Part shown: positions 1 through 51,178 of the stretch, in pieces
Layout of the letters: the number at the start of each line of letters is the position of its first letter
Position numbering within the stretch: the stretch's first letter is position 1
Origin: a virus
IMG/VR virus record: IMGVR_UViG_3300040786_000066
DNA: 64,000 bases
Direction: 5' to 3' (one strand)
The notes under the pieces: model-generated
The model's database searches: none
Told to the model about the DNA's origin: nothing
Seen by the model: only the letters and a program-made list of their open reading frames with translations
Made by a program: the position numbers and the translations under genes

Positions 1-266
1 CTTGGGTAGGTCGATCGACTATTCCACAGCTATTCAAGCAGAGAGGGGTATAGGGGATATCAAACCTTTGCTGAAATATTTTATTGCATTATATTACAGA
101 CAGGGAGGGAGTACCTACTATATGTGTATACTCCAATCACTATAGCCAGGCTTGATACCTAGTGCATACCAGGGCAGGGAGGGAGGGTGTATATAAAATA
201 AAGGGCAGCTTCGCCTAGTCTTATTATTTCATTGTACTATAAACATAAACCCTAAACACATACACG

Positions 267-473
267 ATGACACACTTACCTATGATTACTAATGATGAAG
301 CTGTAGAATTGCTAGACTACATAGCAATGAATGATCTAGAGAACGCATATGATGCTGAAAGAGATGCTATCTCAGCAGACATGTACGACAACTGCGATCC
401 TTCGGAATTTTCGGATACTCGAACTATACGAAGACGAGCTTCCTTACTAACTAATAGCCCTTCGGGGCTTTAA
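267..473 (+). CDS. small highly acidic hypothetical protein (first early gene)
   Basis: ORF follows motif copy 1 and has a D/E-rich core. The C-terminus runs into a terminator, so the true stop may be earlier. Confidence 0.55.
   Translation: MTHLPMITNDEAVELLDYIAMNDLENAYDAERDAISADMYDNCDPSEFSDTRTIRRRASLLTNSPSGL
456..469 (+). terminator. hairpin AGCCC-TTCG-GGGCT
   Basis: C(UUCG)G tetraloop stem between a gene and motif copy 2. Confidence 0.65.
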
Positions 474-549
474 GTTTAATCAATAAAAGGGCAGCTTCGG
501 TAAGTCTTATTATGTTTTTGTATTTCTCTAATGAGATACCCAATTTAAA

Positions 550-930
550 ATGAAGATTATTGAACTAAAAGGAGATATATATGATGTGTTATCTGATGGC
601 GTTGCAGGTGAAAACTGCATAGTGTACCATAATGGTACAGCTAATGTATTTAGCAACATGGAAAGAATATACCACTCTCCAAACTTTACAAATTCAGAAG
701 TGTTAGGAGAAATCCGCACACAAGAAGTTGTATCTACAGAGAATTTTGACTCTCGATATGGAGGACAAAACTCTTTAGTATCTTCGGATATGAAGAGGGT
801 GCAGGACTTCTCAAGAACCAAGGTTTTCGATGATATCGTAGGCGATCTTAAAATAGATGCTCTATATATATTTGATAAAGCCTTATTAACAACACATCAT
901 TTTGTAGTGTTGAAAGATGATAAGTTATAA
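550..930 (+). CDS. hypothetical protein
   Basis: Intact 126-aa ORF between motif copy 2 and a terminator. Confidence 0.7.
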   Translation: MKIIELKGDIYDVLSDGVAGENCIVYHNGTANVFSNMERIYHSPNFTNSEVLGEIRTQEVVSTENFDSRYGGQNSLVSSDMKRVQDFSRTKVFDDIVGDLKIDALYIFDKALLTTHHFVVLKDDKL

Positions 931-935
931 TACCA

Positions 936-960
936 AAGCCTCTGCATATTGTGGAGGCTT
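936..960 (+). terminator. intrinsic terminator-like hairpin
   Basis: AAGCCTCTGC/GTGGAGGCTT 10-bp stem directly after the stop codon. Confidence 0.65.
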
Positions 961-979
961 AATTTTAAAACAAACTGAT

Positions 980-1362
980 ATGAAAACTACAATGCTATGG
1001 TGTTCCGCACACCAACCAACTCAAGAACAAATTAACGAGCTTGAGGAAAAGGAAGATTAATTCTTCTAAAAGAGCACTCTCCAAAGATGATGGAGAGGAT
1101 ATCTAACTGTCCAAACAATAGACAGGAGATTAAAGAACTCATCTCTGATTTCAGAGATGTATTAGAAAGCTTCGATGCTTGTACTATTGTACAATTGGGA
1201 GGAAGCCCATTGTTCTTATTCATGGCAGGATCATTCATCCAAGGGGCGATGAATAAAGGGAATATACTATTCTCTCATAGCGAGAGAGTGAGCATAGACA
1301 CGCCTCAGCCTGATGGTTCTGTGGTTAAGACGAGTGTATTCAAACACTTGGGCTTTATATAA
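980..1362 (+). CDS. Csx20-like putative cyclic oligoadenylate ring nuclease (one apparent indel near 1050)
   Basis: Reconstructed MKTTMLWCSAHQPTQEQI...SNCP...IVQLGG...SHSERVSIDTPQPDGSVVKTSVFKHLGF matches the Csx20 pattern I recall (SH.LT.EQ, SNIP, LIQG, RVS.E..DG.V.K.S.FKH..F). Confidence 0.65.
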
Positions 1363-1365
1363 TCA

Positions 1366-1381
1366 TATCCCTTCGGGGATA
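1366..1381 (+). terminator. hairpin ATCCC-TTCG-GGGAT
   Basis: UUCG tetraloop stem between a stop codon and motif copy 3. Confidence 0.65.
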
Positions 1382-1455
1382 ATGGTTCTCAAAAGGGCAG
1401 CTTCGGCTAGTCTTATAATGTCTTTGTACTTGTCTAATCAGGTACCAACATAATT

Positions 1456-1617
1456 ATGATTATCAAGATATTTCTTAGTGTTATTGCAGTGTTATTCATT
1501 GCAATATCGTACGAACTTCACCAAATAGGTGATGTCAATCTGTACGCGTGGTACGGATTCGGAGGACTGATGGTTGTTTTAAGAACTATCAGAGCTGTTC
1601 AATTATCTAAACTTTAA
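1456..1617 (+). CDS. small membrane protein
   Basis: MIIKIFLSVIAVLFIAISYELHQIGDVNLYAWYGFGGLMVVLRTIRAVQLSKL, two hydrophobic segments (below the ORF-track cutoff). Confidence 0.55.
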   Translation: MIIKIFLSVIAVLFIAISYELHQIGDVNLYAWYGFGGLMVVLRTIRAVQLSKL

Positions 1618-1621
1618 ATAG

Positions 1622-1804
1622 ATGAGAGCATTGAACATTATCAGAGGAATTTCGAAGGCTTTGATGTTTGTAGTTTTGTACTTTATCTTGTACAATTACA
1701 CTCAAGGTCTTCAAACCATGGCTATTGGATTCTGCCTAGCCATGGTATTACTAATCAGCATCGTGCTGGTTATCAATTATTATGAAATAAATAAAGAGTT
1801 ATGA
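1622..1804 (+). CDS. small membrane protein
   Basis: 60-aa ORF with two hydrophobic helices, overlapping the next ATG. Confidence 0.6.
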   Translation: MRALNIIRGISKALMFVVLYFILYNYTQGLQTMAIGFCLAMVLLISIVLVINYYEINKEL

Positions 1805-2103
1805 AAAATGTATTGAGATTTATCGGCGTGATAGCTATAATAGTATCACTAAGTAATGTCATCGTATTGGCATTAAAAGGGTATAATGAAAACATTGTAC
1901 TCATTGGAGCATCTGTATTTATCACAGTAGTGGGATTTGTACTCCTTATTGCTGCTGATAATATGCAGATTAGGTTAACAGATAAGCAAATAGCAGATGC
2001 TATTACTAGCTTAGAGAGGCAAAGTCTTAGAGATAAGATGGCTCATTGGGGAGATGAACTCAATGAAGAAGAGATTGAGCGTCTATCTAGAGGAAGGTAT
2101 TAA
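1801..2103 (+). CDS. membrane protein
   Basis: Two N-terminal hydrophobic helices and a charged C-terminus. Confidence 0.65.
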   Translation: MKNVLRFIGVIAIIVSLSNVIVLALKGYNENIVLIGASVFITVVGFVLLIAADNMQIRLTDKQIADAITSLERQSLRDKMAHWGDELNEEEIERLSRGRY

Positions 2104-2548
2104 TCAAATGGTCGGGGATATTCCTCGGCCATTATTTATTAACAAATTAAATCAAGAAGTTATGTGGAGAACAGAATCAAAATTGGCATTAGTTGCAATA
2201 GCACTAATTGTCTTAGGAGGCATATATGGTATGTCAAACAAGAGTAACAATAGAAAGGCAGATGCCATCGCTGTACTCATGGAGAATGGAGAAGTTGATA
2301 GTTACAATAATGTATTGTTCTATACTGCCAATGATGAGCAGATGGATCAAAGAACATTGAGTGCATTGTCCTATCTATCAAGAGGATATGATATGGTTCA
2401 GGTATACAATAAGATGTCTGACTACAATGACAAAGAGTTATGGTCTGCTAATAAGCCAAGTTGGGATACAGTATACCAAACACCTAAGGAGAAGTATATC
2501 AGTATGCTTATAACAGAGAATGCGGCTGGAGGTATCAAGGAAGATTAG
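2054..2548 (+). CDS. membrane-anchored hypothetical protein
   Basis: Single hydrophobic helix (LALVAIALIVLGGIYG). The true start is probably downstream (2107 or 2161). Confidence 0.6.
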   Translation: MNSMKKRLSVYLEEGINQMVGDIPRPLFINKLNQEVMWRTESKLALVAIALIVLGGIYGMSNKSNNRKADAIAVLMENGEVDSYNNVLFYTANDEQMDQRTLSALSYLSRGYDMVQVYNKMSDYNDKELWSANKPSWDTVYQTPKEKYISMLITENAAGGIKED

Positions 2549-2555
2549 AAAAGAT

Positions 2556-2575
2556 GGTTGGGCTTCGGCTCAATC
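2556..2575 (+). terminator. hairpin GGTTGGGC-TTCG-GCTCAATC
   Basis: UUCG stem followed by a T-run, before motif copy 4. Confidence 0.65.
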
Positions 2576-2646
2576 ACCTCTTTTAAAAGGGCAGCTTCGT
2601 GTAGGCTTATCATGTGTTCATGCAACTGTGCATTAAACTTATAATT

Positions 2647-2925
2647 ATGGAAGAGTCTACAAAGAAAATTTTCAAACCAAAGTTCGAATTGGTTCAAGAA
2701 TGTAATGGCCTTGTTTCAATACATTTGGGTAAGCACGCTGCTGCGGCTATACTTCAAGGGACAGAAATCACTGGAACCACCCAGGAAGATCATCAAATGT
2801 TGGTGGTGTGTCGTACAATTCTTAGAGACATTGCCCTTAACGCATTGGGAGTTAGGCCTGAAGAATTGTGCCAGGACAAAGCAAGGAATCTTTTATATAA
2901 TCTATCAGATAGCCTACGTGGTTAA
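2647..2925 (+). CDS. hypothetical protein
   Basis: ORF between motif copy 4 and a terminator; start taken at MEESTKK. Confidence 0.6.
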   Translation: MEESTKKIFKPKFELVQECNGLVSIHLGKHAAAAILQGTEITGTTQEDHQMLVVCRTILRDIALNALGVRPEELCQDKARNLLYNLSDSLRG

Positions 2926-2932
2926 TATTCAA

Positions 2933-2950
2933 ACCTCTCTTCGGAGAGGT
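2933..2950 (+). terminator. hairpin ACCTCTC-TTCG-GAGAGGT
   Basis: Perfect 7-bp UUCG stem before motif copy 5. Confidence 0.65.
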
Positions 2951-3164
2951 ATGTTTATCTCAAGGAAAAGGGCAGCGTCGTTCTGTCTTATCAATTCCTC
3001 GTACTATATCTAAGTAGTACGCAAAACATATAACATGGAAAATACTATTGACTTAAGAAAGACAGGCGCTGAGAACATTATTGGTAAATTCAGTAAAAAC
3101 ATTCTTCTCAACATATTATACCTGTACGTGAGAACGGTTCGTTCATCGTGGAGCAAATATCTAC

Positions 3165-3416
3165 ATGACTGCTCGTCAAGCTGAAACTATTCTCATGCTA
3201 TCTGATTTCTTGGAAAAACGCCCAAGTGGTGATTCTAAGCATTGTGAGGATAGAGAATCAGAGGCTAATGTCATGCGTGAAAACACTGTGTTCGAACTTG
3301 CAATGCTTGTTCGTACTATGGCTAAAGGCGTTGCAGGTGTACCTTCTATGATTTCCATTAAGGACATGTCTATTGGCTACGGCCATGTATGTGATGAGCA
3401 TAATGGCAGATACTAA
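3165..3416 (+). CDS. hypothetical protein
   Basis: 83-aa ORF followed by hairpin AGCCTCTC/GAGGGGCT (3426-3447). Confidence 0.55.
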   Translation: MTARQAETILMLSDFLEKRPSGDSKHCEDRESEANVMRENTVFELAMLVRTMAKGVAGVPSMISIKDMSIGYGHVCDEHNGRY

Positions 3417-3450
3417 AGTATCAAAAGCCTCTCTTGATTGAGGGGCTATA

Positions 3451-3681
3451 CTATATCAGCGTAGAGAATATTTGATATAGTAGCAACAATGCAGGGGTAA
3501 ATGCACACGAGTATATCAGAACAGCGATATACTTGGGCGTGATTGCTGTGGTGCTTAGGCATCGGCGCTGGGTGAAGCCTGCACGTGAGAATTTAGTTTA
3601 TTGTATAGCCCGAGGTAGAAATACCTGTGACAGCATTGACTACAATAAGTGGATTCTCCAAACAACTACGATAAGGTTGTT
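3451..3681 (+). ncRNA. candidate structured RNA (unassigned)
   Basis: Nested helices CGAGTATATC/GATATACTTG, GCAGG/CCTGC, GAGAAT/ATTCTC, TTATTGTA/TACAATAA and AGGTA-GAAA-TACCT. Confidence 0.45.
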
Positions 3682-3720
3682 TAATAAAAGGGCAGCTTCG
3701 TTCGGTCTTATCAATTCTTC

Positions 3721-4265
3721 ATGAGCACACAAATTATAACTATCAGCGAAGATGTTATGAATACTGTAATCAAACCTATTTCCCTTTTCTTGAACGATAT
3801 CGAGAAGAATACTATCTTCACTCATAACCCTGCTAATGCTAAAGGCGTTAGTAATTATGACATCGTTGATAAAAGCTACCTGTCTTCTTCTACACATCAT
3901 CGAAAGGTGGTACGTATAAGTTTACTGCGTATGACTTGCGTAACTTTTCTCATAAAGGAGTACCGTTCAAGGACTCTTTTCAAGTAGAGAACGGCAAAGT
4001 TATACATGTAGCTGAAACGTTCACCATCACTAAGAAGAGCACGGCTCTACTTGTGGACGACGAGAAGGTATATCCACCGTTCTGTTATAAGAACTATGCG
4101 GAATACGCTGTCATGAAAGCCGCTCAACCAATAGGGACTTACCCTACTGCTGAGATGTTGACTTTCTTGAAAGAGGACGGAGTAAAGGAAGCAGACGTTG
4201 AAAAGTACTATCGTACTATCGACACTGACAAACCTTTATTCTTCTATAAGGCTAACGGCAAATAG
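3721..4265 (+). CDS. hypothetical protein (indel-split), paralog of 4629-5230
   Basis: Joined from ORFs 3721-3987 and 3936-4265; contains YPPFCY. Confidence 0.55.
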
Positions 4266-4359
4266 AAACGGGTTTGATTACGCATACGCATATCGCATAC
4301 AAATAACATCTTCGCGGATGTAGACCTCGAATAATAGTAAGGGTCTATATTATTGAACT

Positions 4360-4390
4360 AAGCACTCTCTTAATTGGGAGTGCTTTTTTT
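4360..4390 (+). terminator. intrinsic terminator
   Basis: AAGCACTCTC/GGGAGTGCTT stem followed by a long T-run. Confidence 0.8.
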
Positions 4391-4628
4391 ACGTCTATGT
4401 ATTGCAATAACTAACCGACTGTACTCTGCAATAGCTGACCTGACCGCAATGGCTACGGACAATATTGAGACTCTACTACCCCAAGGGCAGCTTCGTCCTG
4501 ACAAAGAAAAGGGCAGCTTCGTCTTGTCCAAATATTTCTTTGTCGCTCCCGCGTGTGGGATTGATACAACGGCTTCCCTGAGGATGTTTGTTGTCACTTA
4601 TAACACGAAATATAAAACCTATATTACA

Positions 4629-5230
4629 ATGTCAAAATCAAGCACGATTAGTTTAGATGTATTAAATGCATTAAGCCCACAAAAGGAATGTTGAACGCTT
4701 CAGTTAAGGAGCTAGAGAACCAAGTATTCACTTTTCATTCTATAGTTGCACCTGCTGAGAAACTGCGGATCTTACTGCTGTCAGCGATGACAACTCGTAT
4801 GTGAAAGCTCGTTATATCAATTCAAAAACAAAGAAGAGTTTCTTGATCCCAATCAGAGGATTATTGAATCTTGGAATTGTTCAGATGGGTACAACTAAAG
4901 TGAAAGCATTAGACCCTAAAGCAGAAGTTGCAAAGTGAATGATTATTTACTTGAGAAATCAACTGATGGTAAGGAGTGAGTCTTCCAATGTCTTTCTATG
5001 TAGTTTCTGTCAAAGATAGAATCCAAGAAAGCACTGGGAACATTATGTACCCTCCGTACTGCTACCAAGCGTTCTCTGATGAGATTGAGACGCTTAGAGC
5101 GACAGATCCTAAAGCGGATTTGGGTCCTATCTACCAAAATTATGACTTTATGCAGTCATTATATGCTGGAGAAAGATCTGCTCGCTACGCCACTGCGGAA
5201 GCAACTAAAGACATAGTTATCTCAGTTTAA
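4629..5230 (+). CDS. hypothetical protein (indel-split), paralog of 3721-4265
   Basis: MSKSSTISLDVLN... through YPPYCY to the stop at 5230; followed by a terminator at 5260-5300. Confidence 0.55.
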
Positions 5231-5708
5231 TCCCAAAGGATTTAATAATGATACTATTTACTCTCATACCAGACCATGTGTCCGGTGTGGGAGTTCTTTT
5301 GTCCTTTTCAACAATACACCACTAAAAGCACCTGACATTGCACCATTCATCCATAGGTTTATATAACATTACCGTCTTTTCAACAACAAACTACCCATTT
5401 CCTCTTAACAAACTGGATTTATACTCGATATCGAGTGTATTTATCTCCGATTTGTAATAAATAACAGGAAATAAGTGTATTTTGGTTCGTTGATAACAGG
5501 CAAAAGCGATGAGTACAAAAAATTGAATAATAACGTTAAGTATAAAAGGAGATCCTCGATTACTGAAGAAAGTAAGTAAGTCGAATGGGTTAACCCGAGT
5601 AAGAACACAACGATAAAAATATAGTTAATCAGTCCACAGCCTTCCAGGAACAAACACACTTGTTTTCCATAATTATAAGAGTCATTAATCACGTCAGACA
5701 AGACCGCG

Positions 5709-6093
5709 AAGCTTGTTTGACTGGGTTAGTTACTAAAGTACCAATCCCTGGTCGGCGAAGGGAACTGAGGTTAGAAAAACTGCGAAGCAGCAGGCTGAAT
5801 GCAATGTGATGAAGTACAGTAATCATGTTAGTAAGTCTCTCCCGAGTAGATTGAGTATAACGATTTACAATATTAGCCCCGGATATAGGTTGATTACCTT
5901 ACCCTGTATCAGATAGACACGTTTCATCGTCGGGCAATAACAAAAGTCCAGAGTGCACATAGGTATATGAAAATTAAGAACCTACCTGCATTAGATTTAT
6001 TAGAGAATCGTCTGGCAACAATAAGTCCTGAGTGGATTGCATGATACGTCATACAACCTCGAGCTCTTCATAAGTGGAGAGCTTTACAGGCTT
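5709..6093 (+). ncRNA. candidate large (~385 nt) structured RNA, unassigned
   Basis: No credible ORF. Closing helix AAGCTTGT(5709-16)/ACAGGCTT(6086-93). Internal stems GATATAGG/CCTGTATC, AGCTCTTCA/TGGAGAGCT and CTGC-GAA-GCAG. Confidence 0.5.
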
Positions 6094-6104
6094 ATAGAAA
6101 AGTC

Positions 6105-6226
6105 CGGAATTAATCTTGACGCTGATAGTATGTGCACATATAATTTCAGTTGAGGTACGAGAGATAATCATAAATTAAGTTGTACAGCTTGATTCAATGA
6201 AAGGGTTCGATTCCCGAATTTCCGCA
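6105..6226 (+). ncRNA. tRNA-like RNA (acceptor plus T-loop, non-canonical core)
   Basis: CGGAATT pairs with AATTTCCG (one bulge); GGG-TTCGATT-CCC T-arm; no canonical anticodon arm. Confidence 0.4.
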
Positions 6227-6593
6227 TAATATGGAGAACTTCAGAAGAGCTATCCAAGTTTAATAAACCATTTAATAACCAAACCATTATGAAAAGATTT
6301 TGTTTTATTCGTATTGGCTTTCAGTCTGTTTTCCTTTATGGGAGCTAGAGACTATGTGAAGCCTGTTTCAAGTCATGAAGCTGTATTTGTAGGAAGTACT
6401 AACTTTCCCTAAAGATCTACAACGGTACAATCAAAAGCCGAAGTTCCATAAGGAAAGACAAAAGAATTAGAATACTGCAGGCCTCCTTTATAGTTTGGAA
6501 CGAGCCTGAAGTTAGAATTAACATTGTGTATAATATCGTTGCAAGCACAGACTTAAAATCTGGATACTGACAACTATACTATATATAAAATAA

Positions 6594-6652
6594 AAAATAC
6601 CCTTGAGAGGCGAGTGCCGTTTAGGACTCAAGGGTATTTTATTAACATGGGG
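6594..6652 (+). terminator. long hairpin/terminator upstream of the tmRNA locus
   Basis: AAAATACCCTTGAG/CTCAAGGGTATTTT 14-bp inverted repeat. Confidence 0.6.
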
Positions 6653-6708
6653 AGGCAACTAAGCTTTCTAATATTACGAAGCCGTGTAATAATATGCATT
6701 ATAAAAGC

Positions 6709-6791
6709 GGGTAAGTACTCTAGAAAAGGCGTTATTGTTTGTCGCGGTATACAGTCGGCATACAAGATGGGTTCGATTCCCTACCTATCCA
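6709..6791 (+). ncRNA. tRNA-like RNA with Ala-type acceptor (G3:U70, A73)
   Basis: GGGTAAG/CCTATCC acceptor (one mismatch), TTCGATT T-loop, and a long hairpin instead of an anticodon arm. Confidence 0.45.
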
Positions 6792-6792
6792 C

Positions 6793-7062
6793 AAGATTGT
6801 TCATTGACGTATTATGAGTTTTGCAAGACGGGAGTTCGACTCTCCCAACTCCACAAATCGAAGACCGTGTATGTTGTCGATGGTGTAGCTAGCCGATATA
6901 CAAATAGCCGAACTTATGGGGTTGCCTGGTTTTGATTGCAATACACAAGTTTTACTGAGAATAGTCCCAACTATAACTCCAAAAGTTATACAACTTTTAG
7001 TGCAGCTGATTTAGAATTAGCAGCCTAGACGAAACTTGGGGAGCGTCAATCCCCTTATTTTT
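6793..7062 (+). ncRNA. ssrA: circularly permuted (two-piece) tmRNA
   Basis: Acceptor piece first (GACGGGAG-TTCGACT-CTCCC-AACTCC-A, 6827-6853), then a spacer, then the 5' piece GGGGTTGCCTGGTTTTGA at 6918 (G3:U70). P2 TTGCAA/TTGCAA. Tag frame ends ...FSAADLELAA-TAG (7028). Inter-piece pairing TTGACG(6804-09)/CGTCAA(7044-49). Confidence 0.88.
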
Positions 7063-7083
7063 AAACCCTAAATTTATCGATCG

Positions 7084-7425
7084 ATGAAAAACGAAACTCT
7101 AATTAATCCCAAGATTACGAGGACTCGTAATTCTGTGAACGTAAATTGGTTCTCTGTATGTAAAAGTAGCGTTGATAACGTTATTCAAATTACATCAAAA
7201 TCCGAGTTCTTTAACACTCCTCTTGTTTATAAAGTAACAGAGGATTTAATTATACTTAGAAAAGTCACTATACGAGATAACAAAAGAATAGTAGTACCTA
7301 AAAAAGGCCGCGATTCTGAGTTTTATCGCATGAGCATCATAACTAAATTTGAAATCGAAAACAACAGATACGATTTTGAATTTGATGAAGATGATGAGGA
7401 TGTAGTATCTGCTTATTATAAGTAG
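7084..7425 (+). CDS. hypothetical protein
   Basis: Intact 113-aa ORF with an acidic C-terminus inside the ncRNA island. Confidence 0.6.
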   Translation: MKNETLINPKITRTRNSVNVNWFSVCKSSVDNVIQITSKSEFFNTPLVYKVTEDLIILRKVTIRDNKRIVVPKKGRDSEFYRMSIITKFEIENNRYDFEFDEDDEDVVSAYYK

Positions 7426-7459
7426 CATATTTGTAAATTAATTGAGATCTTTGAATTGA

Positions 7460-8770
7460 AATAACGGCTTGAGCGAAACGTGGGCCGTGGTTCAAAGAAT
7501 ATACAACACTAGTCCTGGAATTCCTGGCAAGCCTATGAAGATAGGAACTTGGTAGAGGATAGAGGCACGTAATCCTTCATATTGCATCGGTACAAATAAA
7601 CAAAACCGAGCCGCACAACACCGTGATTCTTTTAGATAACGGAATATGATTGACTACAACCGGAGCACGGATTCAAACTAACTGTACTGTGTCGAACAGG
7701 ATGAAATCGATTGATGCTAGCCGTAAGGCAACTAACATCTTGTTGCATTTAAAAGGGACAAGAAATGATAGGGATTCTGCAGGATCCAGCTATTGAATAA
7801 GGGTAAGAATAATATCCCCTTAGAACCTCGCTGACACCAGCCAAGTCAGGAGAACAAATCGGGTGGCATCCCTCTAAGCATAAGGAGAACAACAATGCGC
7901 ATTAGCATAAGGTGTACAACAATGCAAGTACTGTCGGCCAGCCATGTCAGCTTGGACCCAAAGTTGGAGTTGATAACTTTGCCGGCAAGTACTTTAACCA
8001 TGCTGAAAAGCAATTGCAAGGAGACTATTAGGTACGTCTTCCCAGAGTAACGTGTGCCAACACCCTGGGTATCTTAGGTCAAGGATGCAATACTTTTCAT
8101 AAAGTCTATAATCTGCGATAACAGAATGAATACATCAACCGCGCAACAAGGCGAGTTTAGTTTTTAGTATGTGAGCGGTAGACACAACTACACACAACAA
8201 ACAAAGATTGCTACTTAAGCTAGTTTATGAACAGCGACTCTGACTCGGGCATCTAATGTACCGGCTAACCTTACAGAGAAAAGGTGTAATCCCTTGCCAG
8301 TATGATTTTAGGCAAATGCAAACTTCGTCAATGTTCCTTAGCGTTCGGGTATTAAGTATAAGATAGCATAAGCCTAAAAGTTGTTGGCATTAGGGCATCA
8401 AGGGATTGATGTGATGAGCTGTAACGGAACTCAGCAGGCAGGTTCGATTCCTGTTAGCCTCACTATTTTAACAACATCCAACGCTCAAAGGAATTAAGAG
8501 GGCAGGCGTTATAGTGACCCGCCGAGAATGAATGGTCACTGAATTTCTAAGTAGTAATGGTCATCTTAAGATACCTGAGTAGAGTGAGTAGTAAGAGTGG
8601 TGCCTATATGGTATTTCTGAAATGAACGTAGTAGCTCAAAAGGCAGATGGACTCAATAGAGAAGATTATTATTGAATTTGCGTGTTCGTTCAGTCCAGTT
8701 TGCATAGCAGGATCGCGCACGTTAAAACTAAGGTAGGAGCAGTCATCAAGTATGGTGATTGTCTCCCTTT
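7460..8770 (+). ncRNA. giant structured RNA, GOLLD-like, with an embedded tRNA-like element (~8393-8462)
   Basis: About 1.3 kb with no ORF of 60 aa or more on either strand. Many helices, e.g. AAGTACTGTCGGC/GCCGGCAAGTACTT, AAAGTT/AACTTT, CCCAG/CTGGG, AGTGACC/GGTCACT, TGGACT/AGTCCA. Ends in a terminator-like hairpin. The class assignment is from recall only. Confidence 0.55.
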
Positions 8771-8798
8771 TGTATACTAAGAACTAACAACAACTAAC

Positions 8799-9161
8799 AT
8801 GGAAGAGTATGTAGATTACCTGAAAGGGAAAATTCAAGAATGCGAGCTGGAAGATATGCACGTATCTGTGTCTGTTTACAAAGAAGTACTAAATACTTAT
8901 TTAAGTTTCCTTGATGCCGCCAAGCTGAAAGCATCGTTACATAATAAAGTAGGCATAGTTACAGCAGGCTCAAGACAATTTGGTAAAGCTGCCAGATTTG
9001 CAGAGCTCTATGGTATGATGAAACCTGCAGTTCACATCATGGTGGGCAGCAAAGAGATGCATGACAATATGGAAAAAGCACTTATTGATGCTGTAGAGCA
9101 TGTAAAGAATGCACCTATTCAAGGAAGATTTACAGACGCTTTTGAAAAGAACGCGGTATGA
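8799..9161 (+). CDS. hypothetical protein
   Basis: Intact 120-aa ORF preceded by a CAACAACTAAC leader. Confidence 0.65.
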   Translation: MEEYVDYLKGKIQECELEDMHVSVSVYKEVLNTYLSFLDAAKLKASLHNKVGIVTAGSRQFGKAARFAELYGMMKPAVHIMVGSKEMHDNMEKALIDAVEHVKNAPIQGRFTDAFEKNAV

Positions 9162-9533
9162 GCATAAACGAGTCCATGGCAAAAGACAACAGTATAATGA
9201 TTACTGCTCTTCCAAAGATGACAAAGCCTCTACTCCCGTTGGATAAATATGGCCAACCGCTTGAATTACCTAAATCCAAATACCACAAATAATCATGAAC
9301 AGCAAATTTATAGGTTACGTAGCAGGGTTGTTGGTAATAGACAGGCAAATGAAAAAATGCTTGGCTGTTGTAAGAACAGCTGGCCACCAGAAAAGAACAT
9401 CAAGCAAGTCTAAGCTGAAGCAGAGTAAGCCGGCGACTAATGCAAATTACAAGAGCACTAAACCGATGAAATCTAAGTCGACCTCGCAATTTCGAAACAA
9501 GTCAAATATCTAACAACAACTAAACTAAGAAAA

Positions 9534-9752
9534 ATGGTAAAGAAAAACACCTCAATTGAATTGGCCGTAGCGCTAATGTTAAAAGGCATGGCTTATATGT
9601 TGTGCATATTAGTTTGTGCAATGTTCCTTCCTTTTATTGTCAGCCTTATCGGAGTGACATTTGTAAAAGAGCTCACATTGGATGAAGCAGTAAGCTCTCC
9701 ATTGTTTATCGTTTTCACAGTAATTGGCGGATTTATATCCTTTTTGTGTTAA
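9534..9752 (+). CDS. membrane protein
   Basis: Two hydrophobic segments. Confidence 0.55.
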   Translation: MVKKNTSIELAVALMLKGMAYMLCILVCAMFLPFIVSLIGVTFVKELTLDEAVSSPLFIVFTVIGGFISFLC

Positions 9753-9828
9753 TGTCAGCTCTTGAAGAACAAACAAAACAAGAGCGCGCTCAAAGAATCA
9801 GTAATTCTATTAAATAGCATGTAGGAAA

Positions 9829-9859
9829 TTTGTACTAATTTATTATATTCGTAAGTTGC
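9829..9859 (+). promoter_or_regulatory. Bacteroidota sigma-A-type promoter candidate
   Basis: TTTG-N19-TAAGTTGC; one T short of the TAnnTTTG consensus, possibly a homopolymer error. Confidence 0.45.
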
Positions 9860-9883
9860 GGTACTAATCGACAAGCAATAACC

Positions 9884-10300
9884 ATGAAAGAAATAAATAA
9901 AGACATTGTAAAAGAAACATCAAATAGGCTGTTGGGATTATGTGAAAACAATCCGGCAGCCTATAAATGTATGATAGAGCTGCTGTCTTCTAATAGACGT
10001 ATCGATCCCAGTAACGGTTTTGGACCGTTAGGGGCTGTAGTAACATTACACTCCTCAGGCATAAAAGGCAACAAAATAAATCTGTTGTTCAACTCAATAT
10101 GTCAAGGCAACATTGCCAGACTAATAGCCATTTTAAGAGCTGTACAGTTGGGGTTGATCTGTAAAACAGAGGTTCACCAAGCAATGTCTATATGTGAAAA
10201 CTCCAAGGAAGAAGCTCTTGACGTAAGAAACATTTATCATAAAGTCAAAAAATACTTGGCACTCAACTTTGACATAAAGAACGAGGCCAGGTTCACCTAA
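9884..10300 (+). CDS. hypothetical protein (tandem paralog 1)
   Basis: Shares the ID-P...G..G..I..LF..IC..N.AR..A.LRA.QLG pattern with the next gene. Confidence 0.7.
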   Translation: MKEINKDIVKETSNRLLGLCENNPAAYKCMIELLSSNRRIDPSNGFGPLGAVVTLHSSGIKGNKINLLFNSICQGNIARLIAILRAVQLGLICKTEVHQAMSICENSKEEALDVRNIYHKVKKYLALNFDIKNEARFT

Positions 10301-10310
10301 AACCAAACAA

Positions 10311-10694
10311 ATGGCACACATAGAAAGAATAAACTGGACAGACAGCGTGCCCGATGCGGTAGCTAAAATAGCGGAAGGGAACATCGGGGCGGCAGTATGC
10401 ATTATGGACCTGATGAAACACTCAGAAGAAATAGACCCTTTGAGTTACCTAAAAGTAATAGGACCCGTTATGCTGTTAGACAGCCTTGGGATATATGGAC
10501 CAAACGTATGGGTAATATTCAAAGACGTCTGCGAACAGAACCATGCAAGAATGCTCGCAGTGCTGCGTGCCACACAGTTGGGCATGCTTTCAAGCGAAGC
10601 ATTGTTGGAGGTTTCAAACAGGCAGTACAGAAATGAAGGAAAAGTAAAAAATAGACGTTGCCGAATTATATTTCAAGGTGAAAGACTTTCTTGA
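10311..10694 (+). CDS. hypothetical protein (tandem paralog 2)
   Basis: Paralog of 9884-10300; the 3' end is probably shifted by an indel. Confidence 0.7.
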   Translation: MAHIERINWTDSVPDAVAKIAEGNIGAAVCIMDLMKHSEEIDPLSYLKVIGPVMLLDSLGIYGPNVWVIFKDVCEQNHARMLAVLRATQLGMLSSEALLEVSNRQYRNEGKVKNRRCRIIFQGERLS

Positions 10695-12314
10695 AGACTT
10701 CGACCCCAACAACAGGGCCGATTTACATAGATAGACCACAGGGACCTGTAACAAAGCAACTTCCAAAATTACAAGGGTCTTTAAAAGCCCTTTTTAATTT
10801 AACAACTAACCAACTATGGAAGTAGCAATTAACCATGTGATAGCGATAGCTGAAAAATCACGAGAATGGAGGTCCTTGAGAAGATTCATTAGGCCTTGGA
10901 GTACATAAAAATAATTCTGTCCTGTTTGATAAGAAAAACAGAAGCCACTATTTTTATATCGAATACAACAAGAAATTCAAAACAGCTGTAGTAGCAATAT
11001 TTATCAAAGAATCTTTAGTGCAGCAAATAGCCATCAAGGCTCATTTCTTAAGAATATCCGGATACGATATTGCAAGCAGGCTAGAGATCGTAGGCAAAGA
11101 AACTATTACTGACGAAGAAATCAGAACAAATTACATCACCCTTCCTCATTTCGTAACACTGAAGGATGAAATCATGAGAACGTTACAAAAATAAAGACCA
11201 ATAAACCCTAACAACAAAAATCATGTTAAAAAACATCAAGAATTCCGGAGCAACTAAAGTATTGACAGTTGTAGTATTATTATCATTAGGCAAAGAATCT
11301 ACTCAAAGAGAGTACAAAATTGCTTTTGCTGAAAATGCAATAGTTGACGAACATGCAGAAGCTGTTAAAGTAGCAACGGCTGCTAAGAAAAGTATACTAG
11401 TATTATACGTCTTGAGGTAACACGTCAGTGTTCACCAGCGTATTGGCAACAACAGAAGTATAATAAAACAAAATCCCCTAAGCAAAGAGCGAAGGGGTTT
11501 TATATAAATCAAGCAGTGAGCCAACGTTAAAGTAAAAGACCAATAATGCTTTAACAACAGTAATGATAAATAAACAGAGTAAATAAACAACATTTATTTT
11601 AATTACACAAGCGGATCAGCTTAAATCTTACTCCCATGGCTCATATTAATACAGAAAACAAAGTAGATGCCCTTATTTTATCTAGAAGAGCTAGCCAAAA
11701 CCAAAATTCACAAAACACTGCAACCTTAAAGGAAGCCTTACATGAATTCATAGGTACAGCTTACATAGTCCAAAAGATTGGGGATACGGAGAAATACCGA
11801 TGTACAAAGAAATGCATAAGATTACAGATATTACAGTAAAAAATGGAGTAGTCTATTTTTTATCAGAGGTAATGCTCATAGAAAATGATATCAAGACAGG
11901 GCACATCAGTGTGAGTAGAAGCTCCCAGGAAGTGTTACCAGTCGTGTATGAAAAAAGCACAGAGCTCTCAGGTATATTTTACGAGGAAATAGTTATGTAC
12001 TATAATAAATCCTTAAGTAAAATGTTCAAAGACTTGAATGACATGATTACAGATCAGCTTGTCATAGGAAGACAGAAAAGCCATCAAAAACGGAACAGTA
12101 AAATAAGTCGAAAGACTCTAAAACATACAACATGCAAGATACTTTAATAGTTATTTTGTCTTTTGTTCTACCCAATTTTCATAGGAGGTATGTTATTTTT
12201 ATTAAGTTTTCTCATTTCTAAGAATACAAAATCAAGCTTAGAAGAAGGATTTAGATTAACACAAATAATGTGGGTAGTGCTAGCAGTAGCAGTACTAATA
12301 TTTCTATTCAGCTC

Positions 12315-17349: not shown

Positions 17350-17623
17350 ATGGAAAATGGATTGAATTTCGGAAAGCCATTGAGGCTGCTAAGGCAGGCA
17401 AAAGAGTGGCAAGAGCAGGATGGAACGGAGCAGGAATGTTCGCATACATAGTTCCTGCATCACAATATCCTGCTATTACAGGCGTTGCAAAAGAATATTG
17501 GGAGAAGGAAACTTTGTACCTTATCGCGCATATTGGGCTCTTAAAACTGCTCAAGAAGACGTAGCAACCTGGGCTCCTTCTGGAAGCGATTCTCTCGCTG
17601 AAGACTGGTCAATACTAGACTAA
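17350..17623 (+). CDS. DUF2829 / Tad2-like anti-defence sponge candidate (two apparent indels)
   Basis: Reconstructed [26 protein letters not shown]...YWALKTAQEDVATWAPSGSDSLAEDW. Confidence 0.8.
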
Positions 17624-38121: not shown

Positions 38122-38371
38122 ATGGAAAGTACAAACAAAACCCATCCTTAGGAGAAACAAGAGTAAGAGTCGATTTTAATGTTGCAAACAGTTCTGATGT
38201 AACTAAAGTTAAAATTGAATCTGCAAAAGCATAGACTTCATGCAATCTTTAAGAGTAAATAAAGATGGAGTATCAGCAAGCTCTGAAAAGCAACGTCTAA
38301 TATCAATGGCTCAAACAGCTTATGAGGAAGCAGGAATGTGGGCTGTTAAAGCAATAACTGAAGGTATATAG
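38122..38371 (+). CDS. Acb2/Tad1-hairpin-like small protein (indel-split)
   Basis: Reconstructed SLGETRVRVDFN...QRLISMAQTAYEEAGMWAVKAIT. Confidence 0.55.
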
Positions 38372-38373
38372 TT

Positions 38374-39541
38374 ATGGCGCACACAGACAAAACATATAAA
38401 ACCCTCTGTACCAAAATAAACACAGAGGGCAGGTTATATGAAGACAAGAGCAGAAATGTATCTCGTATTCAAATTACGAGTCACACACTGAGACACAACT
38501 TCAGCAATGGTTTTCCGGCTTTATCAGCAAAACAACTCCCTTACAAGTTTGTAAAGGAGAACTGATATGGTTCCTTAGAGGAGACACACATATCAAGTAC
38601 TTGTTAGATAACGGAATTCTATATGGAACAAAGATGCCTACAACCTTTATGTCAAAGTAACTTCAGCAAATCTTGACTCTGATGCAAATCATATGTACAG
38701 AAAAACTTAGATGGAAGCTTCAGTATGTTCAGCATGGAAGAATTCATTCATATAGTAATGCTGCACCCAATTGAAGTTTTGCATGAAGCATTCTCTTACG
38801 AAAGGTATACCATGGGAGATGTAGGTAGAAACTACTCTGCGCAATGGAGAAGCTATAAAGGAGAAGCTATTGCCTATAACTCTGATAATAACAGTTTCAT
38901 TTATGAAAGACATGATCAAATTAAAGAACTGATTGCAGACATGCGCGAAAACATCATGAGTACCAGATTAAAAGTTGCCTCATGGAATCCAAGCGAAATA
39001 AACAAAACAGCGCTTCCTCCATGTCACGACAATTTCCAAGTCATAGGAGTTCCTTTGTTCGATAATGAAATGATCGCTCTAGCCGGAAAGAACGGAGCAA
39101 ATATTTCAAAGCAAATGAAACGCGAAGAGTTAATAAAATGGGTATTCCAGAGTACGGATTTGAAGTGCATTGGGGACAAAGAAGCACAGATACGTTTCTT
39201 GGTTTCCCATTCAACATAGCTTCTTACGCTACACTAGCTAAGATACTTGAAGAAATTACTTTGTTTGTAGCCTTAGGAGTCGAAGGTAATCTAAAATGCG
39301 TTCATTTCTATGACAACCAATTTGAAGCAGTAGAGACCCTATTAAAAGAGATACTGATGTGCACGAAGACTGCACACTGGAGGTTTCTCAAGAATTCAAA
39401 GACCTGTGTCAATTGTTTAGAGAAAATCAAATCACCCTAGACGTATTATTTAATCTAATGAGTATCGATATGTTTAAGCTTAGCGGATACACTTCCGATA
39501 AAGCTATAAGTGTAGAAATGCTTGCACCAATAAAAATATAA
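38374..39541 (+). CDS. thyA: thymidylate synthase (indel-split)
   Basis: GELIWFL.G, G..Y..QWR, ALPPCH, QRSTD.FLGFPFNIASY and HFYDNQ motifs. Confidence 0.93.
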
Positions 39542-39834: not shown

Positions 39835-40483
39835 ATGAATAAACAATCGTATAAAAAAGCAGCTTTAGAGCACGGAGACTTTCAAAGCCCTGTACAAGCA
39901 ATTCAACACCACGTAGAATTGGCTATGGCACATGCATTTCTATTTATGGACGGAACCGAGCCGGACAGAATAATGCATATTTTAAATATGGCCTTAGTTG
40001 AAATACTATCTCCAAAAGCTTTGGTGCCTGAAGTTATTGCAGTACCAGAAAAGCCTCTTGTTATTGATTTATTTTCAAATGTACCAGAGCCTTCTTCAAT
40101 ACCTGAAGAAAATGTAATAGCTGAAGAGCATATCTCAACTGTAAAACTGTCATAGTAGGAGATACAGAAAAATAGTGTTCCCAGACCGTGCAGTAGCTCT
40201 AGCTACATTAATTCAAGACTCCATGTTGTCCAGCAGAGCAAAAATAATTTTCTCAAGGACTTCTTTATTAACCCTAGGAGATGTTATGAAGTATAATAAC
40301 AACGAAATAAGCGTATTTGCTGGCATTGGGTTCAATACTTTAGCTGAAATAATAGGTCGATTAAAGACTTACTATGGCCTTCACTTAACTATTTTTGAAA
40401 AAGGGCCTACATTACAAGAACAAAAAATGCCAAGAAAGCAGCAAATCAAAAAAAGCCGTCTTCTGATGATTTTGGTAGAATAA
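39835..40483 (+). CDS. protein with C-terminal RNA polymerase alpha-CTD-like domain (probable indel near 40150)
   Basis: IQDSMLSSRAKIIFSRTSLLTLGDVMKYNNNEISVFAGIGFNTLAEII resembles the alpha-CTD (LSVR..N.L....I.T.GDL......EL....N.G.KSL.EI). Confidence 0.65.
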
Positions 40484-49157: not shown

Positions 49158-50365
49158 ATGATCACAATCAATGTAATTAAAGTAAACGAAGTAGAGTATT
49201 TAACTGGAAAAATTGGAAAAGAAGGTTACTCAGTAGAATTCTCAAAAGACCTAAGAGATGTTTTATTGGACGCTGCTAAAAGTACAGCAATTCAACTACT
49301 GTCGTAGAAGCTAACGAGGTCCTTGCAGACGCTCTAATAGCTGTAGACACTGTCAAATCAGTGAGCAACAACGCTCTTACTGAGATCCTTAAAGATGACT
49401 TAAGCTACAATCCTAAAACACATTCTTACCACATTATTAGCGATGGTAAAACAAGTGTTGAGCCAGTTCACCAATTCTTTGTCAAAAATGATTGAAGCTA
49501 GCGAAAAGGGCTTTCTCCTAAACCATGGTTAGTTTTCTGGGTACGTTTGATGAGAAACAAGCTGTACATGAAAAACAGCACTAAAGTTGAAACTTTAGTT
49601 GAGTATTTAAAAGCACAGTACCTTGATGAGGCTGCTTCAGCTAAATTAGTAGAAGAAGGGTATTCTTCTACAATGGCAAACCAATTGTCTACTTTTGATC
49701 AGATTAGCATCACAGAAGAGGGTATTCTTGCCGCATTCAAATATGTGAAATTAATTGACCAAAAATACATCGTTGAAAAGACGATAAAGGGAGCAAGTAA
49801 TCAAACGTGTGGCAATGTATGAAAGAAAATTAGAGGTTGATCCAATTACAGGAGAAGTAACTAAAGATGAACTTGAATTACCTACACACGCAGAAGACTT
49901 CACATTTGAGCCACCTATGCAAAGACAAAACAACGACCCTTTCACTTGTCAAGATATCAATGATACGACTACTGAGCCTGCAATGGCGCACGTTATTAAG
50001 ATAGGTAAAATTCACGCATTAACTGCTGGATTTGGTCAAGTAAATACTAACGACAACCAGTCTTGTGTTAAAGGCTTACACCTTGGAGGACACTATTATG
50101 TGAAATCTTACAATGGAGTTTCTTCTTACCTTGTTGATTGTCTTGTAGCTCCTGAAGATATCGGAGCTGTTTGTGATGTTAGAAGAGAAGATGGTGCTAT
50201 CAGATGTAGACGTTACATGGTAACTGGAGGTCACTTTGCTGTAAGTAAGGTATGTACCACCCATCATCTTACGCAAAAATGTTGGATGCAGAGTGGATTG
50301 AAGTAAAAGCAAAGGTAATTGCTGATTTAAATGCTGCAAAAGCTGAAATAGAAGCAAAACTCTAG
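49158..50365 (+). CDS. rIIB: rIIB-like protein (indel-split)
   Basis: RLMRN, IT.EG..AFK.V, C.KGLH.G and V.PEDI.AV...IRC.RY motifs. Confidence 0.8.
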
Positions 50366-50373
50366 TTATATTT

Positions 50374-51178
50374 GTGTACCCAATACACAAAAAACTTAAC
50401 CCATGGCTCCTACTAAACCAAAGACACTCCAGAAATACTGGAATTGATAAAAGCGCCCAGGCTGGGAATTCCCGATCTGAAGACAAACTTATATTAATTT
50501 ATGCATCTTACGTCAATTTTATGGTCAGACAATATTCCAAAAAAACAGAGATCAAAGAAGACGACGATTTACGATCGTACGTCAACCAAGGTCTCTTAGA
50601 TGGAATTAGAAAGTTCGACCCAAAACGTGGTTCTAAGTTTATCTACTTCGCCCACATATGGATGAAGAAAAATATATTTCTTGGAGAGGCGTCATACAGG
50701 TTTATTAGGATACCGGTTAATCAAAAGTATTCTACGACTCGCATGTCAAAGAACGTGCAGCAGCAGAGCTCTTGAATTCAGAGCATAGCCACAGTCACGG
50801 TCAAAAATTCATGGCGTTAGAAAATACAAAGACAGATTTTTTCACAGATTTAGTAACATTCGATGTAGAGTCTGGTTTGCAGGAGCTCCCAGAGCATCTA
50901 CTACACCAGACAAACATCAAAACCTTCAACGAAGATGAAGAGACCCTTTCGCTAGATGTATTGAAATCCAATATTCAACAAGTGTTAGCCAACTTCAATC
51001 AGAAGGAAATTTATATTATAGAGCACCTTTTGGGCTCAATGGGAGAGAGCTGTTATCTTCAGAAGAGATAGCAGCTAATCTTAAAGTTACCAAAGTAAAC
51101 ATAACATTCACAAAGACCAGAATTATCCGGATGTTAAGACACAGTTCACTTAGTAATAAAATACTTAACGGAATATAA
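50374..51178 (+). CDS. sigma-70 family RNA polymerase sigma factor (indel-split)
   Basis: Region 2 DDLRSYVNQGLLDGIRKFDPKRGSKFIYFAHIW...IRIP; region 4 KEIYIIEHL.GL...EEIAANLKVT. Confidence 0.88.

Follow-up and report, generated by a model that had tools for sequence, protein, structure and literature searches.

A conserved 38-nucleotide module, probably a phage-specific promoter, opens the gene cassettes of a putative crAss-like phage

The array and its repeated element

The window analysed here is a 64,000-nucleotide (nt) stretch of an ice-metagenome phage, IMG/VR record IMGVR_UViG_3300040786_000066, and our subject is an array of short genes at its start, among which one sequence element recurs, always intergenic and always in the orientation of the genes. 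The core of this element, AAGGGCAGCTTCG, is present in eight same-strand copies between positions 199 and 4521, at sites that we call P1 to P7, the last being a tandem pair (P7a and P7b). A polished copy of the same phage (L063; JGI 3300040772 contig Ga0450658_0022, 167,412 bp) provided a second view of the locus, and the window together with the 26.8 kilobases (kb) upstream of it on the polished copy makes up the ~91 kb of the 167-kb contig that were examined. Altogether our results suggest that the element probably serves as a promoter of the phage's own type and that it also has a part in moving the genes it precedes.

A search of the window for AAAAGGGCAGCTTCG with up to two mismatches returned eight matches, all on the plus strand, at 199, 485, 1391, 2585, 2966, 3686, 4481 and 4507; five are exact, two carry one mismatch and one carries two. 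Chance would supply 0.14 matches, and among 100 dinucleotide shuffles none reached eight or ever exceeded one. Of all 10-12-mers in the window the core is the most over-represented, with repeat families extending to 39-44 nt. All eight lie within 4.3 kb of the sequence examined, and neither the remainder of the window nor the 26.8 kb upstream has a further copy. A preliminary description of this DNA, made from its letters, had placed eight copies in the first 4.5 kb and nowhere else, and the mismatch search and shuffles bear this out. On the polished copy most sites read AAAAAGGGCAGCTTCG, and most copies truly begin AAAAAGGG, usually with five A's. An exact-motif scan of IMG/VR gave 53 single chance matches, among them several terminator hairpins of the UUCG type from unrelated phages; the extended module pattern had no match in JGI metagenome contigs or GTDB genomes, and no Rfam family was matched.

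The unit behind P1 has one gene, that behind P2 two genes with a hairpin between them, and that behind P3 encodes four small hydrophobic proteins and contains an internal hairpin. P4 precedes a single gene, P5 one gene and 236 gene-free nt, and P6 one gene followed by three hairpins, while P7a/P7b stand before one 216-amino-acid (aa) gene and then a long, probably non-coding stretch. The preliminary picture of many small genes, each an independent unit, holds in part: seven promoter-like sites serve at least 12 genes, not every gene being a unit of its own, and the genes range from 53 to 216 aa, not all of them tiny, with three split only by assembly errors.

The impression of small genes is indeed partly an artefact, and several of them are fragments of frameshifted genes. 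The window is an error-prone long-read assembly with 1-bp deletions about once per 150-400 nt, often in homopolymers, and its long genes are nearly all broken by single-base deletions into fragments that hop between frames; the longest open reading frame (ORF) in all 64 kb has at most 425 aa. The thymidylate synthase ThyA of Tenacibaculum phage Larrie, for example, aligns at 38,368-39,538 through frames 1>3>2>1>3>2, each hop being one missing base. Deep short-read contigs from the same sample add single bases at 1390, 2138, 2548, 3094, 3149, 3493, 3685, 3870, 4383, 4502, 4680 and 4970, and the polished copy differs from window positions 1-10,864 by 70 gaps and 4 mismatches. Stop-codon reassignment was considered as a source of the short ORFs and rejected, since the 1-bp deletions are the cause.

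Anatomy of the module

We aligned ten sites, the eight of the polished copy and two from a relative. The module spans ~38 nt, of which 13 bases, at positions 4-16 (AAGGGCAGCTTCG), vary little or not at all; the next four (17-20) are free, G21 is invariant, and a second block, TCTTAT(Y)A(W), gives way to weaker conservation that fades at about position 38. Six copies (199-3686) extend to this full length with an N5-(T/G)CTTAT block, and TGTACT-like bases follow four copies, both as described at the outset. Conservation is asymmetric, and the core has neither a dyad nor a conserved inverted repeat. The best-conserved positions of the second block fall on every third base (23, 26, 29, 32, 35 and 38), a spacing for which there are too few independent sites to judge.

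On the polished copy the core lies 58-73 nt from the ATG at seven sites, at P6 if an in-frame ATG lying 36 nt past the first one is taken. The starts sit in A/T-rich contexts without a Shine-Dalgarno sequence, as has been described for Bacteroidota (PMC6847099). On the upstream side, four copies do directly follow C(UUCG)G hairpins, as first reported, with gaps of 9-15 nt, and the 60-nt folds upstream of these four have free energies (dG) of -12.8 to -16.6; P6 is preceded by a weaker hairpin. On the downstream side, the leaders of P2, P3 and P5 each carry a 20-nt stem-loop that starts exactly where conservation of the module ends, with seven pairs and a UCUAA-containing loop (Table 1). When these leaders were read pair by pair in a gapless 20-nt register (MAFFT broke the register), both bases of pairs 4, 6 and 7 were found to vary among the three hairpins, and in a relative's copy an A-U pair is replaced by G-U.

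The module does not look like a host promoter. No copy has TTG or TTTG ~19 nt before TAnnTTTG, none has a TTGACA-like -35, and a sigma-70 scan was empty at the sites; the earlier remark that the motif does not fit TTTG/TAnnTTTG, the consensus of Bacteroidota and so of the presumed host, holds for all copies. The nearest resemblances are TTTG at positions 34-37 in P2, P3 and P7b and TATnAT at positions 25-30. On the coding strand of the window TAnnTTTG occurs 33 times against 23 expected and is not enriched.

Table 1. Features of the array in window coordinates
Feature	Position	Strand	Remarks
P1 module	199..236	+	core preceded by only 3 A's, then N4-G-TCTTAT; no hairpin upstream
Gene 1, ORFan	267..473	+	68 aa in window; called as 56-61 aa on polished copy
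C(UUCG)G hairpin closing unit 1	456..469	+	15 nt before P2
P2 module	485..522	+	motif search and alignment
P2 leader hairpin	520..539	+	7 bp, loop UCUAAU, z -3.9
Gene 2, 126-aa ORFan	550..930	+	different genes here in other strains, junctions 554 and 926
Hairpin after gene 2	936..960	+	read from sequence; no module after it
Gene 3, Csx20/MJ1673-like CARF-type protein	980..1362	+	127 aa on polished copy; split in window by 1-bp deletion near 1050
C(UUCG)G hairpin	1367..1380	+	10 nt before P3
P3 module	1391..1428	+	TATAAT in second block
P3 leader hairpin	1426..1445	+	7 bp, loop UCUAAU, z -4.2; both arms of the stem differ from P2 at the 4th and 7th pairs
Three small hydrophobic genes	1456-1617, 1622-1804, 1801-2103	+	unit 3
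Internal hairpin of unit 3	2107..2133	+	12 pairs
128-aa gene, N-terminal hydrophobic stretch	2162..2548	+	~90% conserved in X3/X4
C(UUCG)G hairpin	2555..2576	+	9 nt before P4
P4 module	2585..2622	+	GCTTAT variant
92-aa ORFan	2647..2925	+	unit 4
C(UUCG)G hairpin	2933..2950	+	15 nt before P5
P5 module	2966..3003	+	core variant GCGTCG
P5 leader hairpin	3001..3020	+	7 bp, loop AUCUAA, z -2.1; X3 copy kept through A-U to G-U
Unit 5 gene, 127 aa	3035..3416	+	allowing for deletions at 3094 and 3149; intact on polished copy
Hairpin closing unit 5	3426..3447	+	read from sequence
236-nt gene-free stretch	3450..3685	+	present or absent among strains
P6 module	3686..3723	+	motif search and alignment
Unit 6 gene, ~169-181 aa	3721..4265	+	start at 3721 or in-frame ATG 3757; 1-bp deletion in window at 3870; intact on polished copy
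Three hairpins	4307..4385	+	last (4360-4385) followed by T-run, the strongest terminator-like site of the region
P7a, core only	4481..4495	+	CCAA before it, TCTTAT block missing; 26 nt upstream of P7b (28 nt on polished copy)
P7b module	4507..4544	+	second block TCCAAATAT
Unit 7 gene, 216 aa on polished copy	4584..5230	+	split in window by deletions at 4680 and 4970; real start may be ATG 4629

Units differ between strains

One relative, the short-read contig L062 of a different ice study, is ~90% identical to the window (88% mean column identity if an unalignable tail is included). It keeps the gene at 2162-2548 with its hairpin and the P4 gene with its hairpin, and it is without the whole cassette 2966-3685, the junction falling inside a module: past the hairpin of the P4 gene, an upstream spacer of P5 type leads into a module that continues as P6 and the P6 gene. 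Its leader before the P4 gene is likewise chimeric, P5-like as far as GCAAAAC and P4-like thereafter.

Other strain contigs compared with the window, which carry the variant or relative labels X1, X3 and X4, diverge from it at 554 and 3044 and rejoin it at 926, 1391 and 3686, leaving it shortly past a start codon and returning at a stop codon or hairpin or at a module. Those of X1 and X4 have P2 and its leader in common up to 554 and then carry two different genes, X4 rejoining at 926; a further variant of X1 departs from the window at 3044, just past the ATG of the P5 gene; and in X3 a different gene and UUCG hairpin stand ahead of P3. The stretch 3450-3685 is bypassed in an X1 variant that joins 3449 to 3686 and is also missing in the X3 relative. 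Within unit 3, the first small gene (1456-1617) is absent in X3 and X4, and in an X1 variant a hairpin stands in place of the second (1622-1804). Crossover points thus vary, lying inside the core and its N4 region in one event and near the ATG in another.

The preliminary description had proposed that the modules are points at which cassettes are swapped. The cassette loss with its junction in a module, the chimeric leader and the contig junctions support this at the level of sequence, and because gene content between the motifs is not invariant among relatives, the cassette idea survives the comparison. Integron-type cassettes are a poor description of the array: the core has no dyad, the crossovers lie at different places, and neither the 26.8 kb upstream nor the scanned fragments of the window contained an integrase, an HNH gene being the only such gene upstream. 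Two apparent deletion joints, 136>485 and 2576>2967, were not counted, since the repeated module fits two places (for the second, L062 shows this).

Two kinds of sequence were set aside as relatives. The contigs L056 and L057 share a Gad2-like gene, are not or only partly syntenic and stop short of the array; and most JGI matches to the early proteins are long, raw-like reads from this phage itself, in which identities of 64-98% reflect read errors.

Proteins of the units

Five of the array genes encode small proteins with hydrophobic stretches. The product of gene 3 is Csx20/MJ1673-like (NCBIfam E-value 1.5e-7, below the cut-off), and its Atlas clusters are mostly viral; by sequence it would be compatible with counter-defence against type III CRISPR signalling. 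Ten array proteins compared with Pfam and NCBIfam gave no match at or near family thresholds save this one, six compared with PHROGs gave none, and Atlas look-ups of two early proteins were uninformative. The suggestion that these are anti-defence cassettes thus finds support for the Csx20-like gene and not for the others, and for the array as a whole it is a reasonable guess. A short motif, (V/M)YPP(F/Y)CY, is common to the unit 6 and unit 7 proteins (E 6e-4 in a single-pair BLASTP alignment of 22 residues), a weak sign of common origin. Early expression of the genes is suggested by their position and ORFan content.

The phage and the setting of the array

The major capsid protein, encoded ~25 kb upstream of the window (L071:16103-17434), matches the Pfam family Crass_capsid PF23898 with an E-value of 8.6e-16 and 57.8 bits against a 27-bit cut-off. 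It is 32-36% identical to the nearest records, two unannotated faecal phages, and 21-23% identical to named Crassvirales. From this match and the low identity to the named members, we take the phage, as far as its sequence tells, to be probably a distant, deep-branching crAss-like virus of ~167 kb. It is not a T4-like myovirus, having a crAss-type capsid and a PolA-type exonuclease domain; rIIA/rIIB-like, GroES-like and RNase H genes are present and are not diagnostic of that group.

The array heads the replication-strand block of the genome, with strong terminators before it and replication genes after it. Upstream lies a minus-strand late block (terminase, GroES-fusion, portal, capsid). Where this switches to a plus-strand block, 19 tRNA genes are arrayed at L065:9548-12942, and behind them come plus-strand genes, including the HNH gene and one for a tail-lysin-like protein, and then two strong terminators. 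Downstream of the array are genes for RNase H, thymidylate synthase, ligase, dNMP kinase, rIIA/rIIB-like proteins, a sigma factor, a PolA-type exonuclease domain, a DnaB-like protein and primase. Just before P1 is a gene-free spacer of ~450 nt that is GC-rich (~50%) in a genome of 37% GC (L065:18420-18895 and window 1-198); the window starts inside it, it carries repeated CAGGGAGGGAG, and it may be a genome end, a packaging site or an origin.

The sigma gene, at window 50347-50772, matches Sigma70_r2 with an E-value of 1.2e-4, just under the cut-off, and PHROG 351, annotated as RNA polymerase sigma factor, with 1.2e-11. The surrounding region (50347-51175) is broken by frameshifts, has a helix-turn-helix resembling sigma region 4 near 51056 and directly follows the rIIA/rIIB-like genes (46.7-50.3 kb). 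Catalytic motifs of RNA polymerase (RNAP), sought as DFDxD in any frame and as the T7-like HDS and RKxxK, are absent from the ~91 kb, and the T7-like RNAP of Larrie used as a query had no match at E<=1e-5 in the sequence searched. Window 40145-40480 has a weak match to the C-terminal domain of the RNA polymerase alpha subunit (E 0.0084, below the cut-off). In MT835470.1, the closest database relative by capsid, the giant ORFs gave no PDB sequence match and no RNAP recognisable by sequence.

Several further observations concern the genome at large. The large terminase appears as two genes (420 and 238 aa) in L065:2624-4805 of the 167-kb contig and as one 726-aa gene in L066:2625-4805 of a 19-kb contig from another sample, which could be either an assembly error or a real difference. 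A fragment at window 17393-17620 has a domain like that of the Thoeris anti-defence protein Tad2 (Pfam PF11195, E 1.8e-7); Pfam scans of 8.7-20.8 kb of the window, done in fragments, gave almost no matches. DNA and protein searches with the early-region DNA, the early proteins and the DnaB-like fragment found no close relatives in a phage collection or IMG/VR. Of two scans with upstream proteins, one gave no match and the other the phage's own 19-kb contig and three distant structural loci without comparable repeats.

Discussion

We favor a model in which the array is a set of portable expression units and the module is a phage-specific promoter that doubles in a cassette role, a reading that the sequences make probable. 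Each of seven units would open with the ~38-nt module, usually 9-15 nt past the stable hairpin that closes the unit before it. The module would act as a promoter peculiar to the phage rather than one of the host's sigma-A type, the hairpins as terminators or 3'-end stabilisers, and the covarying stem-loop of three units as the 5' end of the mRNA leader. Since the modules are nearly identical, they could also act as homology patches for the deletion, insertion and exchange of cassettes between co-occurring strains. The recombination role is supported by the strain comparisons; the promoter reading fits the position, orientation and spacing of the module, and promoter activity, start site, early timing and polymerase are what we infer.

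We envision two geometries. In one, the first transcribed base would be near position 36-37, where the leader hairpins have their foot; TATnAT would then span -12 to -7 and the core roughly -31 to -21, the layout of an activator box or an appropriated sigma factor. In the other, it would start at G21, and the A-rich stretch and GGGCAGC core would lie at about -20 to -5, as in the promoters of single-subunit RNAPs.

Which enzyme might read the module is a separate question, in which we rank a virion-delivered RNAP above a host core enzyme redirected by the phage and the latter above the host enzyme alone. The preliminary description had named a phage RNAP, possibly packaged in the virion, or the phage sigma factor; with a crAss-type capsid and a sigma gene, either candidate is conceivable in principle. 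Crass-like phages generally inject a giant virion RNAP that makes the early transcripts (bioRxiv 10.1101/2020.03.07.982082; PMC7886860), and such an enzyme is plausible here because the capsid is crAss-like; it is our tentative first choice. Host core redirected by the phage sigma factor or by another phage factor is a weaker candidate, and the gene for the phage sigma lies 46 kb downstream, amid replication genes, so that its product could act on immediate-early genes only if it were delivered along with the DNA. That the host enzyme reads the module unaided seems unlikely. The fullest version of the model, in which the module is a promoter for a virion-delivered or otherwise phage-supplied RNAP specificity in a deep-branching crAss-like phage and its 13-nt core doubles as a homology patch that moves early ORFan and anti-defence genes as ready-to-express cassettes, is less likely than not.

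Several observations weigh against parts of this model. One group of crAss-like phages has no RNAP block (PMC7886860), and the early virion-RNAP transcripts of phage phi14:2 showed no common upstream motif (bioRxiv 10.1101/2020.03.07.982082). With a capsid only 21-23% identical to named Crassvirales, and with a group that lacks the block, possession of a virion RNAP is not assured, and the ~91 kb contain none of the catalytic motifs sought. MT835470.1 has no repeat comparable to the module. For a sigma-directed enzyme the difficulty is one of spacing: only 4-5 nt lie between the core and the second block, a distance unlike any sigma-70-family spacing (~16-18 nt), and the core would fall in the spacer. 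A significant 5' leader hairpin is present in only three of the eight leaders, and the hairpins of the array have weak U-tracts. Finally, any 38-nt repeat draws homologous recombination, and shuffling of the units is no proof of a regulatory role.

Other readings of the module were weighed as well. The modules could be ordinary strong early promoters for unmodified host RNAP with sigma-A or an alternative sigma, true equivalents of the elements known as PeSLs from T4-like phages, in which case the core would be a UP-like or extended element peculiar to the host. The second block does contain the -10-like TATnAT (TATAAT in P3), 6-7 nt before the leader hairpin, the TTTG at 34-37 of P2, P3 and P7b resembles the 3' half of TAnnTTTG, the ~91 kb yielded no phage RNAP gene, and the PeSLs of T4-like phages are themselves host sigma-70 promoters (PMC2839356). 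Yet in every copy TTG or TTTG is missing at -33, TA is missing at the required place and a TTGACA-like -35 is missing; an invariant, GC-rich block of 13 nt is unlike the variability of host promoters, and TAnnTTTG, from the consensus of the presumed host group, shows no enrichment on the coding strand. We regard this explanation as improbable. We judge it about equally hard to accept that the core is no part of a promoter at all and is instead a protein-binding site (a shut-off operator or a site for a recombination or packaging factor) or an RNA signal such as a processing site, with transcription starting elsewhere. P7a, which retains only the core in tandem with P7b, is what a protein-binding unit might look like, the core is conserved far more strictly than typical promoters, and the junctions of cassette variants lie in or beside it; but the core is asymmetric and without a dyad, keeps a constant orientation and distance to the gene downstream, and follows terminator-like hairpins in units for which no other promoter candidate is left. 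Moreover, crossovers that differ between events argue against a fixed site for site-specific recombination, and the 26.8 kb upstream hold an HNH gene and no integrase.

The thought that the repeat is a functionless product of assembly or duplication arises from the quality of the window, an error-prone long-read assembly. This reading has already been refuted and we give it almost no weight: the same eight copies are present in the independently assembled polished contig of 167 kb, the repeat was seen too in a second sample's contig (L064), in raw long reads and in short-read contigs of three studies, and a diverged relative keeps the core.

The closest parallel to the array is found in the PeSLs, composite elements of stem-loop and early promoter that stand before ORFans in T4-like phages and whose mutual recombination deletes, inserts and swaps genes (PMC2839356, PMC4122927). 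Demonstrated promoter and terminator activity and the formation of mini-circles are further traits of PeSLs. Both systems are intergenic composites of a stem-loop and a conserved promoter-like sequence (here, at four of the eight copies); both are clustered before ORFans in a variable region, mark the ends of insertions, deletions and replacements between close relatives, and leave chimeric elements behind. The differences are as clear. The PeSL promoter is of the host's sigma-70 type, whereas the module has neither -35/-10 nor the Bacteroidota -33/-7 elements; the phage, judged by its capsid, is crAss-like rather than T4-like; and in the array the hairpin always comes ahead of the conserved block, without overlap. 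The analogy to the promoter-stem-loop cassettes of T4-like phages drawn at the outset therefore carries over for the logic of cassettes and not for the type of promoter, and we would describe the array as a variant of PeSL-like cassettes rather than a member, sharing four features with them and differing in two, the host-consensus promoter and the T4-like phage.

Phage phi14:2 belongs to the same crAss-type capsid family, and there too small ORFans head the replication-strand block beside long, probably non-coding stretches and the promoters are unlike those of the host. It differs in having no common early motif, whereas the phage described here has a near-invariant 13-nt core and no RNAP gene that we could see in ~91 kb.

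The promoters of T7, T3, K11 and SP6 are long, near-identical and asymmetric, and in them an A/T-rich 5' portion leads into a G/C-rich portion that confers specificity. The module is likewise A-rich and then G/C-rich, and the invariant G 4-5 nt past the core could be its +1. However, T7-type promoters drive middle and late genes throughout the genome whereas the module is confined to 4.3 kb, four free bases take the place of the conserved melting region, and the ~91 kb hold no T7-like RNAP motif. Larrie, which encodes a T7-like RNAP, has a repeat of its own that is unrelated to the module: TTTTAACAAAA(T/C)TTTAAC in ON950054.1, whose 10-mer TTTAACAAAA occurs ~20 times on the coding strand and whose full 14-mer forms occur five or six times, and which may mark Larrie promoters. 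The early promoters of phage N4 are short-stemmed DNA hairpins whose loop has 3 nt, and the module core differs from them in having no conserved inverted repeat. It resembles the early promoters of the N4 virion RNAP (PMC4496689) in another respect, being a class of few sites, limited to the early region and unlike those of the host.

For annotators, the repeat explains why assemblies break in the array region, and many of the small genes of the window are sequencing artefacts. For phage biology, our findings extend mobile cassettes of promoter and terminator, so far known as PeSLs from T4-like phages, to a distant crAss-like phage, with evidence from natural populations that the same modules mark the gain, loss and exchange of genes. 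Transcripts of phi14:2 gave no motif for a crAss-type virion polymerase, and the invariant 13-nt core before putative early genes therefore offers a concrete template for work in vitro. If the reading is true, the module would be the first sequence-defined class of early promoter for a virion-delivered RNAP of the crAss type.

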